Sequence record: PQ505080.1
Reading direction: 5' to 3' (one strand)
DNA from: Escherichia phage HMD-6
DNA: 64,000 nucleotides
Part shown: in pieces, positions 6,014 through 14,627 of the stretch
Layout of the letters: each line of letters opens with the position of its first letter
Numbering within the stretch: the stretch's first letter is position 1
The notes under the pieces: model-generated
Databases searched by the model: none
Told to the model about the DNA's origin: nothing
What the model saw: the letters and a program-made list of their open reading frames with translations, nothing else
Program-made: the position numbers and the translations under genes

Positions 6014-6042
6014 TAACGGGCACCCCCGGTGATTGTCTCCCG
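6014..6042. repeat. GC-rich 29-bp repeat, copy A (inverted partner at 14599-14627)
   Basis: ATAACGGGCACCCCCGGTGATTGTCTCCC; exact reverse complement found at 14599-14627. Confidence 0.7.
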
Positions 6043-6120
6043 GCCCCCACTGCCCCGGCTTGTTATTATAGTATCACACAGGACAAAGAAAGCAAGGAGT
6101 TTTTGCATAAATTTTTAGAC

Positions 6121-6142
6121 GATAATGATAATCGTTCTCATT
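6121..6142. promoter_or_regulatory. Fur-box-like motif (GATAATGATAATCGTTCTCATT)
   Basis: 17/19 match to GATAATGATAATCATTATC. Confidence 0.3.
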
Positions 6143-6154
6143 TCATGCAGCGCC

Positions 6155-6190
6155 CATCCCCGGTGGTTGTCTCCCCCGTCACCGGTGCCT
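6155..6190. repeat. GC-rich repeat, copy B (diverged)
   Basis: CCCCGGTGGTTGTCTCCCCCGTCACCGGTGCC resembles copies A and C. Confidence 0.5.
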
Positions 6191-6556
6191 GCCGTCCTTT
6201 CGATACGTATATTGTGCCACCTGGCGGGGCCGCTGTCAACACTTTTCAAAAAATTTTTCTAACCTGGTGCGCTAACCGCTGCAACCTGGCGGGGCCAGCC
6301 TGGCAGGACCTAACTGACCAGGTGGGCCGGGCCTATGCTATAGGATAGGTAACAATTGAAGAGGAGGTACAAAAAATGGAAGGTAATATGATCCCCCCTG
6401 GAAAATGTAGCTATTAATGACGCTGAGGCTATCGCCCTGGTTGAAAAGGCTATGGCGGGAGCGTTGGAACATAGAGAAGAGTACGAAAAATGACGGTTAA
6501 CCTGGCAGGGGCGGCGGCTGGAGAATTCTACCCAAAAAAATAATTTTAACTAGTGG

Positions 6557-6585
6557 TTGACAGCTCGGACAGTTTTTGTTATTCT
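6557..6585 (+). promoter_or_regulatory. sigma70-type promoter (weak -10)
   Basis: TTGACA-17-TATTCT. Confidence 0.4.
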
Positions 6586-6638
6586 TATCCTCGCAAGGTG
6601 AACAACACCACACCAATTAACAGAGAGGACAAAAAATC

Positions 6639-6836
6639 ATGAACGCCTACGGAATCAAAGTACGTCGCAACACTCGCCAGGTGGTCACCGATCAAATGAT
6701 TTGCCAGGTGGATGTGACCATCAACAACGGGCAAGGCCTTTATAAATTCCGTCGCGGTCAGAGCTATACCCGGCAACAGCTTAATCGTTGCGCCCTGACA
6801 AAAGGCCAGATCAACCACTGGTTTAATAAAAAATAA
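6639..6836 (+). CDS. hypothetical protein (65 aa)
   Basis: ORF track; GAGAGGA RBS; ATCATG start context. Confidence 0.55.
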   Translation: MNAYGIKVRRNTRQVVTDQMICQVDVTINNGQGLYKFRRGQSYTRQQLNRCALTKGQINHWFNKK

Positions 6837-6839
6837 GTA

Positions 6840-6868
6840 TTGACATACGGCCCGACATAAAATACACT
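6840..6868 (+). promoter_or_regulatory. sigma70-type promoter
   Basis: TTGACA-17-TACACT. Confidence 0.5.
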
Positions 6869-6900
6869 AAAAGCACAAAAGACACTGAGAGGATAAAATC

Positions 6901-7299
6901 ATGAAAACCACCACCTTTAATTTTGATAATGCGGACTTTTCTTTTTCTGATGTCAATAACTGCCGCCGTGATCGTGGATTTTACAAGGCCTATAATCTGG
7001 TGGGCCTGGATGATGACAATAATTTGCACGAAGTAGCTGAGATCCGGTATTATGCCGCCGCCAGCGGGAACACTCATTATTGCGTTTTTTGGATACACGA
7101 CAACAAGAACAATAAGTACGGCTATACTGGCGGCAAGGCGAGCGGTCACGGTTACGATAAAGCTAACGCAGCACTTGAGAGCGCATTAAATGCTATGGGG
7201 ATCACTGCCGACGGCTGGATCTACGAAGAAGAGTTTTTGTCGGCACTTGCTGCCCATCTAGGGTATAAAAAGCACATTGTGACATGTGCCCACGAATAA
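6901..7299 (+). CDS. hypothetical protein (132 aa)
   Basis: ORF track; GAGAGGATAAAATCATG. Confidence 0.6.
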   Translation: MKTTTFNFDNADFSFSDVNNCRRDRGFYKAYNLVGLDDDNNLHEVAEIRYYAAASGNTHYCVFWIHDNKNNKYGYTGGKASGHGYDKANAALESALNAMGITADGWIYEEEFLSALAAHLGYKKHIVTCAHE

Positions 7300-7305
7300 A
7301 AATCA

Positions 7306-7333
7306 TTGACACGCTGCAAAATTCAAGTAAACT
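7306..7333 (+). promoter_or_regulatory. sigma70-type promoter
   Basis: TTGACA-16-TAAACT; followed by leader hairpin GGCGGGAA-TGT-TTCCCGCC at 7344-7362. Confidence 0.5.
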
Positions 7334-7381
7334 AGACACAAAAGGCGGGAATGTTTCCCGCCAACACAAAGGAAAAAGATC

Positions 7382-7786
7382 ATGAATAAGAACGTACGCC
7401 GCATCATGAACGAGTTGGCAAACGATGAAAAAATTATTGACATGCATTTGATCAACATTTGCCGCCGTTGTGTAACATATAACAACCGCGCCGCAAAAGC
7501 GCGTGAGATGAACGCAAAAGGCACCTTAAAGCCATTCCAGGTGGTGGTAAAGGCCATTAAAAATGTAACTAATACGGCAAACCAGGTACAGGGGAACACC
7601 AACGAGAGTACCAATATTGATCCGGCTTACATCATGAAACGGATCCGGACCTGTAAGAACAAAGAGCAAGTGTATAATGTTATAGACTGGTTGGATTCTA
7701 TGGGCGACGTGGTGTACAATAGATTCTCGGCAGCTATTGAGATCCAGCTTGACAGGTTGGACGGTAAAGTACTGAAAACTTATTAA
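7382..7786 (+). CDS. hypothetical protein (134 aa)
   Basis: ORF track; conserved leader module. Confidence 0.6.
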   Translation: MNKNVRRIMNELANDEKIIDMHLINICRRCVTYNNRAAKAREMNAKGTLKPFQVVVKAIKNVTNTANQVQGNTNESTNIDPAYIMKRIRTCKNKEQVYNVIDWLDSMGDVVYNRFSAAIEIQLDRLDGKVLKTY

Positions 7787-12685: not shown

Positions 12686-12741
12686 AGACTTATCAGGGGG
12701 GTGGCCCCCAATCATTAACCGGATAGATGGGAGTTAAAATC

Positions 12742-13026
12742 ATGGCTATTGTTACTGTTGGCGATGTAGTGGAAATGGAAGCAAAATACTTAAAAGCGGG
12801 GATGCATATCCTACGCAACGATCTTGAACTAGTCCTGACAATGGTCGACTATAATCCCGGTCAGGATTATCCAAGCATTGACTACTTTTTCCAGTATGTT
12901 GATGAAGAATTAAAAGAGGATGAGGCTTATCGGGGTGAATTTTGCAATTTCTTTTGCCCTGACGAGGTTGTAAAAGTTATCTATCAACCTGGCGTACCTT
13001 TCCCGTTGCACGCCATCAATAAATAA
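12742..13026 (+). CDS. hypothetical protein (94 aa)
   Basis: ATG 12742 after GGGAG..AATCATG. Confidence 0.55.
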   Translation: MAIVTVGDVVEMEAKYLKAGMHILRNDLELVLTMVDYNPGQDYPSIDYFFQYVDEELKEDEAYRGEFCNFFCPDEVVKVIYQPGVPFPLHAINK

Positions 13027-13089
13027 GCCTGGCGGGGCCGAAAAAGGCCCCTCCTGAAACTATGAAAAAATAAAGATAGGTAAATCATC

Positions 13090-13323
13090 ATGATGGAACA
13101 AATTAAACGCGCTGAGGCTATTAATGGCAATGTGATCTATTTTGTCAGCAAAAACGAAAAAGGCGTACCCTATGCGGCGGTAATAGTACAGCCTGACGGC
13201 AATTATTGGTGCACTGTGTACGGCGCTTATTCTTTTGGGCGTCCAGTGCATGATAGAATTTTAAAAGTAGCGAACCCTACCGGGAAAAATATCACAGCAG
13301 AAAAATTTTTTGAAAATAGTTGA
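13090..13323 (+). CDS. hypothetical protein (77 aa)
   Basis: ORF track. Confidence 0.5.
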   Translation: MMEQIKRAEAINGNVIYFVSKNEKGVPYAAVIVQPDGNYWCTVYGAYSFGRPVHDRILKVANPTGKNITAEKFFENS

Positions 13324-13348
13324 CATGACTATATAATACTGTAGTATA
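13320..13348 (+). promoter_or_regulatory. sigma70-type promoter
   Basis: TTGACA then TAGTAT/AGTATA about 17 bp downstream; leader hairpin GGGGC-AACAA-GCCCC follows. Confidence 0.45.
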
Positions 13349-13399
13349 TAAATCAAAGGGGGCAACAAGCCCCACCAACCACAAAGAGGATAAAAAATC

Positions 13400-13579
13400 A
13401 TGGCTATTATTGCAAAGACTGAGATCGTAGGCTTGGATTCTATTCTCCTCGCATATGAGGAAGCTATAGAAATGTATGTAGTTTCCTATGGTGAATATAT
13501 CCGTGAATATAAATCTATTGATCTGGCTTTTGAATGTTATATTCGCCAGGTTAATAAAGCGTACGATGATTATCGTTAA
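13400..13579 (+). CDS. hypothetical protein (59 aa)
   Basis: Not in track (below 60 aa); AGAGGATAAAAAATCATG context identical to neighbouring genes. Confidence 0.45.
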   Translation: MAIIAKTEIVGLDSILLAYEEAIEMYVVSYGEYIREYKSIDLAFECYIRQVNKAYDDYR

Positions 13580-13653
13580 AACAGTTTGACAACAAACAAC
13601 AATCTAACAAAGCATAATACATAAGGCGGCAATGATGCCGCCAACATGACAGA

Positions 13654-13917
13654 ATGAGAAACATCATTTACAGATTGACAAAACGCAACATTATGATCGC
13701 CACCGTGATCGCTTGCCTTTTCGCTTTCGTGAGTAACGCAACGTTTAACGCCGTGGGCGGGGTGGTGTTTAATGCTGGCAGCGTTTCAACAGCTAACACA
13801 ATGATCGATTGTTTGCAACTTTTCTTTTATGTTGCCTTTCGTTTAAAAATAGCTTGCAAGGTAGACCGTTTTGATTTACCTTTTATTTGTGGCGGCGTGA
13901 TCGCTATCGTCTGGTAA
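13654..13917 (+). CDS. hypothetical hydrophobic protein (87 aa)
   Basis: ORF track; weak RBS; preceded by leader hairpin GGCGGCA..TGCCGCC. Confidence 0.4.
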   Translation: MRNIIYRLTKRNIMIATVIACLFAFVSNATFNAVGGVVFNAGSVSTANTMIDCLQLFFYVAFRLKIACKVDRFDLPFICGGVIAIVW

Positions 13918-14087
13918 AGTGTACGACATAGGGCGGGGCAATAAGGCAACGCCCATTAATAAGGGTGGAATCATGTTAGAAAAAATTTTCACGGTTGTAG
14001 TAGTTGGCCTGGCATTATCGGTTGGAGTGGTTGCAACTATGGCTAACATGATCCTATCTTCCCACGGTATCGGATAAGGTGAAACAA

Positions 14088-14303
14088 ATGTTCACGAACA
14101 AAACAGGAAAAACGGAATTTTTACGCAACTTACAGATCGGCAAACCTGAGATCTGGTATTGCACTAAAACACCACGTGACGAAATGAAAGATTTTACCGC
14201 CACGCTGAAGCGGGTAAAAATATCCATTACGCAGAAAAAAGCCTTGATAGTGGTGGAAGGTGAGATCCCTCAAACCGTTGTCATAGTTGAGCGTACAGCA
14301 TAG
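14088..14303 (+). CDS. hypothetical protein (71 aa)
   Basis: ATG 14088 after AAGGTGAAACAA. Confidence 0.5.
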   Translation: MFTNKTGKTEFLRNLQIGKPEIWYCTKTPRDEMKDFTATLKRVKISITQKKALIVVEGEIPQTVVIVERTA

Positions 14304-14392
14304 TTTAATCTATACCGTACGCCCCATTAACTAACAAAGCATAAGCAGGCGGCGGTGACCGCCTTGAACGCAACAGAAAGAGAATAGAAAAC

Positions 14393-14527
14393 ATGAGAAA
14401 GATAATTATTACCATGGGGATCGTGGCGGCAATGTTGGCGATCTTTCCCTTTATGGTTAGGTACGTGCTGATCAGTGTTGTCCTGATAGGCAGCGATCTA
14501 TTGGAAACGGTTGGCAACTGGTTTTAA
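14393..14527 (+). CDS. small membrane protein (44 aa)
   Basis: AGAGAATAGAAAACATG after leader hairpin; hydrophobic; below track cutoff. Confidence 0.4.
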   Translation: MRKIIITMGIVAAMLAIFPFMVRYVLISVVLIGSDLLETVGNWF

Positions 14528-14535
14528 GATAATAA

Positions 14536-14564
14536 ACAGGACTTGCAATGGTCCTGTTTTTTGT
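14536..14564 (+). terminator. rho-independent terminator
   Basis: ACAGGAC-TTGCAATG-GTCCTGT then TTTTTTG. Confidence 0.6.
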
Positions 14565-14598
14565 TATACTTATCTCACGGGTGGCACCTGGCGACGGG

Positions 14599-14627
14599 GG
14601 GAGACAATCACCGGGGGTGCCCGTTAT
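14599..14627. repeat. GC-rich 29-bp repeat, copy C (inverted relative to 6014-6042)
   Basis: GGGAGACAATCACCGGGGGTGCCCGTTAT is the exact reverse complement of copy A. Confidence 0.7.

Follow-up and report, generated by a model that had tools for sequence, protein, structure and literature searches.

Homologous promoter-hairpin cassettes face outward from both borders of an early-gene block in a Vequintavirus

The 29-nt inverted repeat that brackets an 8.6-kb gene block in the window (the whole analysed stretch, 64,000 nucleotides of Escherichia phage HMD-6, a Vequintavirus, i.e. an rV5/FV3-like E. coli myovirus) belongs to three copies of a cassette: two lie in tandem on the left edge of the block and the third lies on its right edge. 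The arms do not appear to serve as recombination sites. From the arrangement of the sequence elements we tentatively propose that each cassette specifies a promoter-proximal structured RNA element or small RNA, leader-like and transcribed outward from the block; two homologous cassettes that face outward give rise to an inverted repeat. An Rfam search with the cassette returned no match and no literature on it was found, and this regulatory cassette has apparently not been described so far.

The 29-mer ATAACGGGCACCCCCGGTGATTGTCTCCC lies at 6013-6041 on the plus strand, and its exact reverse complement at 14599-14627. The original prediction had recognized this exact pair, with the left arm placed one base too far to the right (6014-6042). 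Among 100 dinucleotide-preserving shuffles, none gave a match at three or fewer mismatches. The diverged third copy, previously noted at 6155-6190, was recovered with its core CCCGGTGGTTGTCTCCC at 6159-6175 (plus strand), and the 37 nt of 6141-6177 are 78% complementary to 14597-14633. The core pattern has three matches in the window against 0.14 expected. A profile HMM built from 16 cassette copies of several phage lineages hit exactly three positions in the window (E = 2.9e-9, 5e-9 and 5.9e-5; next best E > 8). It recovered the same trio from the closest relative, VB-EcoM-WM, whose 139-kb genome is complete. With only three copies in the window and in that genome, the element is not a dispersed repeat, and the many scattered copies expected of a generic repeat family were not found.

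All cassettes have the same order of parts: a sigma70 promoter, 22-36 nt, the core GAGACAAWCACCG-N3-CUGCCYG, and a U/A-rich tract. The promoters place the predicted transcript on the G-rich strand, so that the left copies would be read leftward (minus strand) and the right copy rightward (plus strand). In the left arm (L1, 6013-6041), which reads GGGAGACAATCACCGGGGGTGCCCGTTAT on the minus strand, the invariant 13-mer (CGGTGATTGTCTC on the plus strand) occupies 6027-6039, and a UGCCCG motif also lies within the arm. The remainder of the L1 hairpin (to ~6062) and a leftward sigma70 promoter read from the sequence span 6042-6100 on the minus strand; the predicted -10 box (TACTAT/TATAAT) lies at 6073-6065 and the -35 box (TTGCTT) at 6095-6090. 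This promoter is the weakest of the three, and the weak -35 is found in Vequintavirus. The third copy (L2, 6148-6181, minus strand, the HMM site with E = 5.9e-5) carries the 13-mer GAGACAACCACCG on the minus strand, at plus-strand positions 6161-6173. Its predicted leftward promoter (6211-6239) consists of TTGACA (6239-6234), a 17-nt spacer and CACAAT (6216-6211) with TG upstream; the spacer motif GCCAGGTGG is also found in a rightward early promoter at 14649. The left copies run on into Fur-box-like palindromes and then iteron-like repeats. One palindrome (TTGAATGATAATCATTCTC, 5984-6006) agrees with the Fur 19-mer of E. coli in 15/19 positions and contains AATGATAATCATTCTCATT (5988-6006), one mismatch from the phage consensus and 7 nt outside the L1 arm, with a half-site-like copy at 5959-5977; the other (GATAATGATAATCGTTCTC, 6121-6142) agrees with the Fur consensus of E. 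coli in 17/19. Downstream of L1 and L2 in the leftward sense, three iteron-like direct repeats of ~47 nt each (5685-5870) contain a TCGATC motif, which includes GATC.

At the right border, a bidirectional intrinsic terminator (14534-14559) harbors the predicted right-copy promoter in its loop and T-tract (14534-14570, plus strand): TTGCAA (14543-14548), 16 nt, and TGtTATACT with the -10 box at 14565-14570. Such terminator-embedded promoters are common to the phages ukendt and CR3. The right copy (R, 14578-14627, plus strand) forms the hairpin CGGGTGGCACC...GGTGCCCG, with the arm at 14599-14627 and the 13-mer GAGACAATCACCG at 14601-13. A second, independent sigma70 promoter follows (14649-14677, plus strand; TTGACA, 17 nt, TAACAT), predicted to drive the gene starting at 14732, and the predicted rightward R transcript heads towards a 2.1-kb ORF-free region with three more Fur-box-like palindromes (16764, 16782 and 16898; 16764-16916). 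Between the arms, all genes lie on the plus strand and encode small proteins of unknown function. The stretch is rich in sigma70-type promoters and intrinsic terminators, in keeping with a block of early genes; the cassettes point outward from both its edges. The earlier fallback suggestion of a terminator-like repeat came close, in that each arm lies within a GC-rich hairpin beside terminators and promoters.

Vequintavirus, Certrevirus and Phapecoctavirus all carry the cassette at both borders of an early block. The two borders lie 8.6-10.7 kb apart, and their copies face opposite ways, in 11 Vequintavirus genomes, in Certrevirus CR3 and in Phapecoctavirus ukendt; this recurrence in three genera of two subfamilies, together with the shuffles, upholds the original view of a specific, non-random pair around the block. 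The arms are the most conserved stretch of the cassette. The left element (~5956-6043) has 80-89% matches in phages of Cronobacter, Klebsiella, Proteus, Salmonella, Pectobacterium, Erwinia, Enterobacter and Shewanella, in which alignment is lost over the remainder of the intergenic region. For the right element, phAPEC8-like and CR3-like phages gave matches. Unrelated phage contigs carry the core as well, with five copies within 9 kb of the 215-kb contig L241, and others in L010, L023, L165 and L270. The order promoter, core, Fur-like box is common to L1 and L2, both CR3 copies, ukendt, Mydo, IMG147k/148k and L270, and equivalent repeats of the TCGAGA(C) type follow the cassette in CR3, Mydo, IMG147k/148k and L010.

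Across 25 copies, the G-rich strand carries promoters with TTGACA, TTGCAA or TTGACC, a 16-18-nt spacer and a TATAAT-like box at a consistent distance from the core, mostly 26-30 nt. The mean promoter score is 10.2 on this strand, compared with 8.3 and inconsistent geometry on the opposite strand. In L241, four of the five copies have a perfect TATAAT at 22 nt, and in the fifth the top-scoring box is TATGAT at 27 nt. Pairing in the R-type hairpin is retained at 95% across 12 sequences (26-48% for slid controls), and both Vequintavirus haplotypes keep a 9-bp stem through several coordinated changes. Fur-like palindromes with at most three mismatches number four, against 0.00 expected, and they share 17/19 positions with the actual ryhB operator as taken from the E. 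coli sequence.

The notion of an invertible or recombinogenic segment, or of a composite insertion, was not supported. A query mimicking the inversion junction was covered to at least 80% in none of 139 matching genomes; a comparison of synteny, as suggested earlier, showed identical gene order and orientation in all 11 fetched Vequintavirus loci and constant synteny across the three genera. A Pfam scan of ten proteins (eight of the larger block ORFs and two flanking ones) gave no recombinase or transposase domain, and no target-site duplication adjoins the arms. The arms of EdH4-type genomes match exactly over 23 nt at most, and Mangalyan and Aya have different haplotypes on the two arms, so the exact 29-nt identity is a special case. 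At 29 bp, a perfect inverted repeat has sufficient length for homologous exchange now and then, and ectopic gene conversion could account for the presence of both alleles, GGCACCCCC and GGCAGGCCC, at each of the two loci. Yet a flip would leave some 25 genes antisense to their neighbors, and we regard site-specific or homologous inversion, or composite insertion, of the 8.6-kb block as scarcely credible. The Hin, Gin and Cin systems likewise have a multi-kilobase phage segment between inverted repeats, but here no invertase was found among the ten proteins scanned, the second orientation occurs in 0 of 139 genomes, and the repeats are pieces of promoter-leader cassettes.

The proposed RNA element has to be weighed against readings in which the conserved sequence acts as DNA or is read from the other strand. 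Minimum-energy folds of the predicted RNAs vary by lineage, with the 13-mer paired in some and unpaired in others, covariation is weak (a double change in 1 of 12 pairs), and the U/A-rich tract makes a poor intrinsic terminator in most copies. Strict sequence conservation at a fixed promoter distance would be explained equally well by a DNA operator, with the invariant 23 bp GAGACAAWCACCG-N3-CTGCCYG as a putative duplex site, at about +15 to +40 of three early promoters, for a phage or host protein that represses or activates, and with an incidental flanking hairpin. The conservation of primary sequence rather than pairing, the weak covariation, the fixed distance from the -10 box and the presence of the site in only three of many early promoters all agree with an operator. 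We nevertheless consider it unlikely: the site lacks dyad or direct-repeat symmetry, its spacing from the -10 box covers a range of 14 bp across lineages, more than one helical turn, no candidate regulator emerged, and flank complementarity is kept in independent lineages and, by coordinated changes, in both R haplotypes. The R-type consensus fold is somewhat more stable on the C-rich strand (-11.8 versus -7.8 kcal/mol). On that strand, each left copy might be a Fur-controlled small RNA gene of the RyhB/PrrF kind, in tandem like PrrF1/PrrF2, with the Fur box in a promoter (TTGAAT, 18 nt, CAGAAT), the RNA CGGUGAUUGUCUCC... and a hairpin with the tail UUGUUAUUAU; in a variant, this weak promoter would converge on the strong one of the G-rich strand as an iron-responsive sense/antisense switch. 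A Fur-like box indeed lies directly upstream, in this sense, of L1 and L2, and one lies upstream of the CR3 right copy; TTGAAT and GAAT are conserved beside the palindrome in many genera, including the core-less Shewanella phage 1/40; the consensus hairpin has many G-U pairs on that strand; and three transitions in the 3' half of L1 keep pairing only there. Still, the promoter hexamers are poor and inconsistent (the mean of 8.3), position 2 (A) of the -10 box is not conserved, L2 lacks the GAAT box, the CR3 right copy has a Fur box with no -10 at the required spacing, and the core persists without a Fur box in R and in all copies of L241, L010, L023 and L165, which makes a Fur-controlled RNA on this strand distinctly unlikely.

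Outward G-cluster-rich RNA could alternatively act on nearby replication origins, opening or priming them through R-loops or transcriptional activation after the model of T4 ori(uvsY)/ori(34), ColE1 or lambda ori, in the AT-rich and iteron regions at 5685-5870 (left) and 16.0-16.9 kb (right). G5-G6 runs on the non-template strand just past the promoters would suit this role, as would the AT-rich, ORF-free DNA with GATC-containing iteron-like repeats downstream of left-type copies in several genera, and the 2.1-kb ORF-free region with iterons and GATC palindromes at which R points. We presume the latter to be equivalent to a transposon-free stretch of a Vequintavirinae phage. That stretch, a ~2-kb intergenic region between oppositely transcribed genes, is reported to take no transposon insertions (preprint 10.1101/2025.11.20.689424). 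Such a role is nonetheless quite improbable, given that the five copies within 9 kb of L241, mostly just upstream of ordinary promoter-gene units, are too many and in the wrong context, that two genes and a terminator lie between R and the ORF-free region, and that none of the rV5-like phages has a mapped origin (PMC3606486). Still more improbable is a trans-antisense pair, the RNA version of a long-range stem. The G-rich R RNA, perfectly complementary over 29 nt to plus-strand transcripts that cross L1 on their way into the early block, would regulate this entry, and the arms would be kept identical by selection for their complementarity. The exact identity here and in VB-EcoM-WM, the matching L1 and R haplotypes in 10 of 12 genomes and the lack of a predicted plus-strand terminator between the upstream gene (end at 5726) and L1 are compatible with it, but linkage over 9 kb in related genomes explains the haplotype association equally well, the arms of Mangalyan and Aya are mismatched, the two CR3 copies differ at 5 of 29 positions, and other lineages have single or unpaired copies.

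The proposed element resembles several known systems in part. The lambda nutL/nutR and HK022 putL/putR sites are cis-acting RNA signals on divergent early transcripts, with sequence-specific motifs in hairpins. As in the cassette, short homologous sequences flank a phage gene block in terminator-rich surroundings, and their inverted orientation follows from the position of each just downstream of an outward early promoter. Unlike nut and put, no boxA was recognized on reading the cassette sequences, a boxB-like hairpin (GACAA pentaloop) fits L1 only and is not conserved, no N-like protein was identified, and the left copies have no downstream genes to antiterminate into. With RyhB and PrrF1-PrrF2 the cassettes share Fur-operator-like palindromes (17/19 to the ryhB operator) that adjoin short non-coding GC-rich hairpin units, and the tandem arrangement of PrrF1/PrrF2, here 134 nt apart. 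The cassette has no similarity to RyhB and no match in Rfam, however; the good promoters lie on the other strand, which puts the Fur boxes downstream of the predicted RNA and not in its promoter, the phage is strictly virulent, and copies without any Fur box exist. PeSLs (promoter-early stem-loops) of T4-type phages are direct repeats on either side of individual ORFs and probably serve in cassette shuffling. Like them, the right-copy promoter sits inside a terminator stem-loop (-35 in the loop, T-tract, then -10), family D1 of the window and the pre-core promoters of L241, L023 and L010 are likewise built into terminator stem-loops, and the setting is a hyperplastic early region of small ORFs; the element described here, in contrast, is an extra GC-rich leader that follows such a promoter and has only three copies, which run in both orientations. 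ToxI/pseudo-ToxI of the rV5-like phage PhiTE is an intergenic non-coding RNA element from the same subfamily, as the putative cassette RNA would be. Pseudo-ToxI, a 36-nt tandem repeat in the tRNA region of PhiTE, has the heptamer GGTGATT in common with the cassette (PMC3475682), which differs after the heptamer and in genomic context and shows no 36-nt periodicity.

We hypothesize that each cassette yields a short structured RNA of ~50-70 nt, which would stand alone as a small RNA or form the 5' leader of a longer transcript. In it, the 13-mer-bearing sequence would sit in a GC-rich hairpin 22-36 nt past the -10 box, followed by the U/A-rich tract. The RNA may function through an exposed 13-mer, by base pairing or by binding of a factor, with the surrounding stems free to vary. 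The predicted transcripts of the left copies are antisense to every neighboring gene and have no ORF downstream, so that whatever they produce would need to work as an RNA or through an action on DNA. At left-type copies, RNA polymerase would meet the Fur-operator-like palindromes within 5-15 nt and then AT-rich DNA with iteron-like repeats, and because these palindromes lie past the hairpin, onward transcription is plausibly gated by Fur, the iron repressor of the host.

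The 29-bp inverted repeat was confirmed. The 29-mer ATAACGGGCACCCCCGGTGATTGTCTCCC lies at 6013-6041 on the plus strand (left arm, L1), starting one base to the left of the position first given, and its exact reverse complement lies at 14599-14627 (right arm, part of the right copy R, 14578-14627). One hundred dinucleotide-preserving shuffles yielded no such pair, even with up to three mismatches. The diverged third copy (L2) is also present, with CCCGGTGGTTGTCTCCC at 6159-6175, and over the 37 nt at 6141-6177 its complementarity with the right arm is 78%. A dispersed repeat with scattered further copies is not supported: a scan tolerating mismatches, together with a profile HMM of 16 copies, located only L1, L2 and R in the window (E = 2.9e-9, 5e-9 and 5.9e-5; next best E > 8), and the same search found three sites likewise in the whole 139-kb closest relative.

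The window belongs to a Vequintavirus, an rV5/FV3-like E. coli myovirus. The 10-kb region is matched by 251 phage records, 66 of them over at least 80% of its length, and VB-EcoM-WM, the complete genome nearest to the window, is colinear with it at 95-97% identity. All genes between the arms are on the plus strand and encode small proteins without assigned function, interspersed with sigma70-type promoters and intrinsic terminators. This block fits the “early region” described for rV5 and CB7 (PMC3606486, PMC7344957).

Exact 29-nt inverted sites (6013-6041/14599-14627) do bracket a segment, and the original prediction took the block for a possible invertible segment or composite insertion. None of 139 related genomes covers the inverted junction (query: left flank and arm, then the flipped interior); these 139 match the two halves of the query at separate places. 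Order and orientation are unchanged at every locus fetched from relatives, with no flipped block, and the block sits between the same elements in three genera. No Pfam recombinase, resolvase or transposase domain was detected in ten proteins (eight of the larger block ORFs and two flanking ones). PHROGs assigned no function to the ten proteins compared with it, nine of which match families of unknown function and one of which matches none. The arms, at 29 nt, are not IS elements, and the bases flanking them, TGCAGA and ATAAAA, are not a target-site duplication. Because inverted junctions, a target-site duplication and, in the ten proteins scanned, recombinase or transposase domains are all lacking and synteny is constant, an invertible or composite mobile segment is unsupported. 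The cassette is most probably not an inversion site, and inversion of the block between the arms is extremely improbable.

Among 12 Vequintavirus genomes the arm occurs as two haplotypes, GGCACCCCCGGTG and GGCAGGCCCGGTG. L1 and R carry the same haplotype in 10 of the 12 and are mixed in phages Mangalyan and Aya; in EdH4-type genomes the longest exact arm-to-arm match is 23 nt. Exact 29-nt identity is a special case. The distal half of R shifts with the haplotype (GGTGCCACCCGT versus GGTGCCTGCCGT), and thereby a 9-bp stem is kept in both versions. Linkage is enough to account for the matching haplotypes at L1 and R; the presence of both alleles at both loci hints at occasional gene conversion, although this is not required.

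The left element (window ~5956-6043) is conserved at 80-89% in phages of Cronobacter, Klebsiella, Proteus, Salmonella, Pectobacterium, Erwinia, Enterobacter and Shewanella, in which the intergenic DNA beside it cannot be aligned; the right element is alignable in phAPEC8-like and CR3-like phages. Both CR3 (Certrevirus) and ukendt (Phapecoctavirus, a different subfamily) have oppositely oriented left and right copies around a block of small genes, separated by 10.7 kb and 9.5 kb, respectively. Five core copies in both orientations lie within 9 kb of an unrelated 215-kb contig (L241), and further copies occur in the unrelated contigs L010 (two), L023, L165 and L270. When aligned, the invariant part is GAGACAAWCACCG-N3-CTGCCYG; the motif of the predicted G-rich RNA is written GAGACAAUCACCG. 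A metagenome scan for more copies returned nearly exclusively chance matches within GC-rich coding DNA, and relatives are few in IMG/VR. The non-coding element is real, specific and evolutionarily conserved. Our literature search found no description of the cassette, which seems to add a hitherto undescribed member to the promoter-proximal regulatory RNA/DNA motifs of phages.

In region 700-5200 of L241 (ERZ650304.5 NODE-5), two copies face each other across a perfect palindrome, GCATCCTATAATTTATAGGATGC (1181-1400); three of the five copies directly follow a TATAAT box and an intrinsic terminator, and a conserved promoter (TTTACA, 17 nt, TATAAT) lies downstream of three of the five. A second near-invariant GC-rich block, CTACCGGCGATCCACCTTCC...GCCCCGCCTTTTCGCCGTGGGGTGGCG, is found in Certrevirus, Mydovirus, Phapecoctavirus and one Salmonella phage at the place that L2 takes in the window (1680-1755 in locus L002, 220-295 in L004, 1678-1752 in L005 and 1698-1770 in L007). 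Its internal hairpin shows compensatory changes (ACCTGG/CCCGGT, ACCAGG/CCTGGT, ACCAG/CTGGT); the block has no Rfam match and is absent from the window.

Sigma70 promoters were scored on both sides of 25 copies. Nearly every copy has, on the G-rich strand, TTGACA, TTGCAA or TTGACC, 16-18 nt and a TATAAT-like box, the end of the -10 box being 22-36 nt (mostly 26-30) upstream of GGAGAC. Among the five L241 copies, four carry a perfect TATAAT at 22 nt; for the remaining one the best-scoring box is TATGAT at 27 nt. The mean promoter score is 10.2 on the G-rich strand versus 8.3 on the C-rich strand, where hexamers are weaker and distances inconsistent. The R promoter (14543-14570, plus strand; TTGCAA, 16 nt, TGtTATACT) is built into the upstream terminator. 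On the minus strand, L2 has a promoter at 6239-6211 (TTGACA, 17 nt, CACAAT) and L1 a weaker one at 6095-6065 (TTGCTT, 16 nt, TACTAT/TATAAT). Since the promoters lie on the G-rich strand, the predicted transcripts point away from the block, those of L2 and L1 to the left and that of R to the right, and this outward direction would explain why the copies are inverted.

The sequence beyond the core distinguishes two types of copy. In left-type copies (the window, CR3, ukendt, Mydo, two IMG/VR phages and L270) the core is followed by a U/A-rich tract, YUAUUCU, then, at most 5-15 nt further on, by palindromes of consensus AATGAGAATCATTCTCATT, and finally by AT-rich DNA with iteron-like direct repeats and no ORF. 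The right copy and most L241 copies lead, through an AT-rich spacer, to another strong promoter and a gene; two genes follow R before a terminator at 15342-15361. Several early promoters share the motif GCCAGGTGG, with a CCWGG Dcm site, between -35 and -10 (window 14649-14677 and 6211-6239; ~2195-2225 in L007; ~1828-1855 in L002). Inverted and direct copies of the A-tract/T-tract sequence TTTTCAAAAAATTTTTCT (window 6234-6260/13299-13325 and 11808-11840/13288-13320) adjoin TTGACA boxes, and a related CGAAAAAATTTTTT(A)GGGG is kept near the left module in Mydo, R7 and IMG/VR phages.

The right-type hairpin is 95% paired across 12 sequences, versus 26-48% in slid controls, with a double change at one pair only and a consensus fold somewhat better on the C-rich strand; the hairpin of the right arm holds the invariant CAGGTGCC. 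We found no single consensus fold across lineages. The predicted RNAs differ in their minimum-energy folds, with the 13-mer paired in some and not in others, and left-type copies of different genera have the motif-bearing half alone in common. The core is thus conserved mainly in primary sequence, within a GC-rich region that is usually able to fold.

Several other identities for the element were rejected. Host mimicry would demand some similarity of the left region to host DNA, and none was seen in 5,426 E. coli genomes. The 119-aa ORF at 5989-6348, a gene in several annotations, has its frame broken among relatives by a 1-nt indel (AAGGAGTTTTTGC versus AAGGATTTTTTTGC), and substitutions in the core are non-synonymous. 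A boxB-like GACAA pentaloop fits L1 of the window only. For a sigma70-dependent pause element with GACAAT as the -10-like hexamer, the T, as judged by eye, is lost in ~40% of the copies (GACAAA); for a sigmaE-type promoter (AAC, 18 nt, TCT), direct reading of the sequences showed that AAC is not conserved. Read in the same way, CRISPR-repeat mimics (types I-E and I-F) and Tus/Ter, DnaA, IHF and CRP boxes gave no convincing match. A G-quadruplex would draw on the four G-runs of L1, which have no equivalent in R or L2. Nothing relevant was found in Rfam, at gathering thresholds on the window or at E <= 1 on 5300-17600 and five related loci.

The palindromes next to the left copies resemble Fur operators. 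The 19-bp Fur consensus GATAATGATAATCATTATC, a 7-1-7 dyad, is matched at 17/19 positions by 6121-6139 and at 15/19 by 5984-6002, and the ryhB operator AATGAGAATGATTATTATT, read from an E. coli genome, is identical to the phage consensus at 17/19. Four sites in the window have at most three mismatches to the phage palindrome, where 0.00 are expected (maximum 0 in 40 shuffles), and they are confined to two non-coding regions, beside L1/L2 and at 16764-16916. CR3 has four Fur-like boxes on the left and one beside the right copy. The palindromes at 5959-6006, 6121-6142 and 16764-16916 are kept in the equivalent regions of CR3, ukendt and Mydo. Judging from these similarities, we infer that host Fur may bind here; a literature search found no paper on Fur sites in virulent phages. 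A further match at 14392-14410, CATGAGAAAGATAATTATT, has at most three mismatches to the ryhB operator and, 200 nt to the left of the right arm, covers the point at which the last small gene of the block begins (its start codon); in ukendt this gene has a similar start, and the match may simply be the coding sequence for MRKIII. More than 120 viral contigs contain TGAKAATCATTCTCAT, the 16-nt core of the palindrome (IMG/VR loci L045-L163, for example L084, L110, L146, L056/L072/L162 and L121; a database of this size should yield some chance matches), often in non-coding arrays of 2-5 with extended AAA...TTT flanks. These arrays suggest that Fur-like operators are widespread among proteobacterial phages.

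Three direct repeats of ~47 nt (TCTCAGTACTCGATCTGTTTTTCGTTT..., with GATC), resembling iterons, occupy 5685-5870 immediately to the left of the Fur-like boxes. CR3, Mydo, two IMG/VR phages and L010 have related repeats containing TCGAGA(C) in the corresponding position. The second group of boxes lies in a 2.1-kb ORF-free region (15390-17500) between rightward early genes and leftward genes, together with iteron-like repeats of the GTGTAAACTGTCAGG type at 16285-16375, two occurrences of TATACGTGAACA, and two GATC-rich palindromic repeats, TGATCAGATCA (16069-16162), that recall the pac hexamers of P1. This region is probably the ‘non-coding’ box of the rV5 paper, and probably also corresponds to the ~2-kb region of Bas54 in which transposon insertions are absent (10.1101/2025.11.20.689424), which makes two descriptions of one stretch; an origin and/or a pac site are candidate roles for it. 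Elsewhere, four tandem 21-nt units, CTGTCCGTGATACGGACACTA, each with a palindrome, GTCCGTnnnACGGAC, lie at 58014-58098 upstream of the tRNA cluster and could be an operator array. That cluster comprises six tRNA genes (60477-61286), and a group I intron (Rfam, 81 bits) lies at 62809-63087. A 51-nt inverted repeat of 82% identity (34941-34991/63055-63105) ties the region of the intron 3' end to 34.9 kb, where it could mark a second related intron or a homing-endonuclease site.

In phages lambda (nutL/nutR) and HK022 (putL/putR), homologous signals lie on divergent early transcripts and hence form inverted repeats around a gene block. These systems, with inverted homologous copies bracketing a block, are the closest in logic to the cassette. 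The cassette has consistent sigma70 promoters 22-36 nt upstream of the core on the G-rich strand, that of the predicted transcript. It lacks boxA/boxB and the two-stem put architecture; positions that would be boxB stem partners vary uncompensated in the 16-copy alignment. Unlike nut and put, the left copies have no downstream ORF to antiterminate into. RyhB and PrrF are brought to mind by the Fur-like boxes next to L1 and L2 and by the tandem arrangement of the left copies, but the convincing promoters are on the strand opposite to the one that the boxes would control, and no homology to RyhB/PrrF emerged from Rfam at gathering thresholds or E <= 1. The promoter upstream of R lies in a terminator stem-loop (14534-14570), as in PeSL of T4-type phages and also in family D1; the likeness is limited to the promoter part, the GC-rich core being an addition. 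A 61-nt promoter-in-terminator unit resembling PeSL has four copies (7774-7834, 8395-8455, 8726-8786 and 12115-12175); the loop of its stem-loop, GATGGCCTTGACTCCAGGGCCATC, holds a TTGAC -35, and a TAAACT -10 comes after the stem-loop. A mimic of ToxI or pseudo-ToxI was rejected: the pseudo-ToxI locus of the related phage PhiTE, read directly, has only GGTGATT in common and is a different element at a different locus, and the cassette has no tandem periodicity, whereas ToxI consists of tandem 36-nt repeats.

The conserved cassette and the promoter asymmetry are observed, whereas the RNAs and Fur binding are predicted. As the reading with most support we tentatively propose, at somewhat below even chances, three outward-facing paralogous promoter-leader cassettes, each making a short G-rich structured RNA, either a small RNA or a 5' leader, whose ends are predicted. 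The function of such a leader would depend on an exposed 13-mer, and in left-type copies the putative Fur operators would lie directly in the path of the polymerase. The conservation of primary sequence over fold would also suit an operator in duplex DNA, located around +15 to +40 relative to these promoters; we consider this unlikely. The Fur-like boxes beside L1 and L2 would suit an opposite-strand RNA under Fur control, or a sense/antisense switch with convergent promoters; promoter scores favor the G-rich strand, and our estimate for this explanation is slightly lower still. Transcripts from the cassettes, on entering the putative iteron regions, could instead activate origins, a role that we consider improbable. 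Antisense pairing of an RNA from R with plus-strand transcripts crossing L1 would exploit the complementarity of the arms and is very improbable.

Returning to the promoter-leader cassettes, we speculate, with little confidence, that in two or more subfamilies strictly virulent phages have tied their early programme to Fur, the iron sensor of the host, through outward promoter-leader RNAs with iron-gated read-through or through Fur titration. An RNA family with invariant GAGACAAWCACCG, new to science, would then fire into arrays of Fur operators and iteron regions, and iron status would gate read-through into, or activation of, regions resembling replication origins. Alternatively, multiplied Fur boxes would titrate Fur and derepress host iron uptake, which would supply iron to the iron-dependent ribonucleotide reductases of the phage.

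Their broad host range makes the rV5-like phages (Vequintavirinae and relatives) candidates for therapy and biocontrol, and their early region consists almost wholly of genes of unknown function. Our analysis removes a tempting invertible-segment reading from the annotation of ~250 genomes. In its place stands an element of fixed anatomy, at a fixed place at both block borders, conserved where its surroundings have diverged beyond alignment and physically tied to sequences that come very close to a genuine Fur operator. This unexpected tie is what makes the element worth experiment: if the RNA and the Fur link are true, they would provide a handle on how these phages sense host iron, start replication and bound early transcription.
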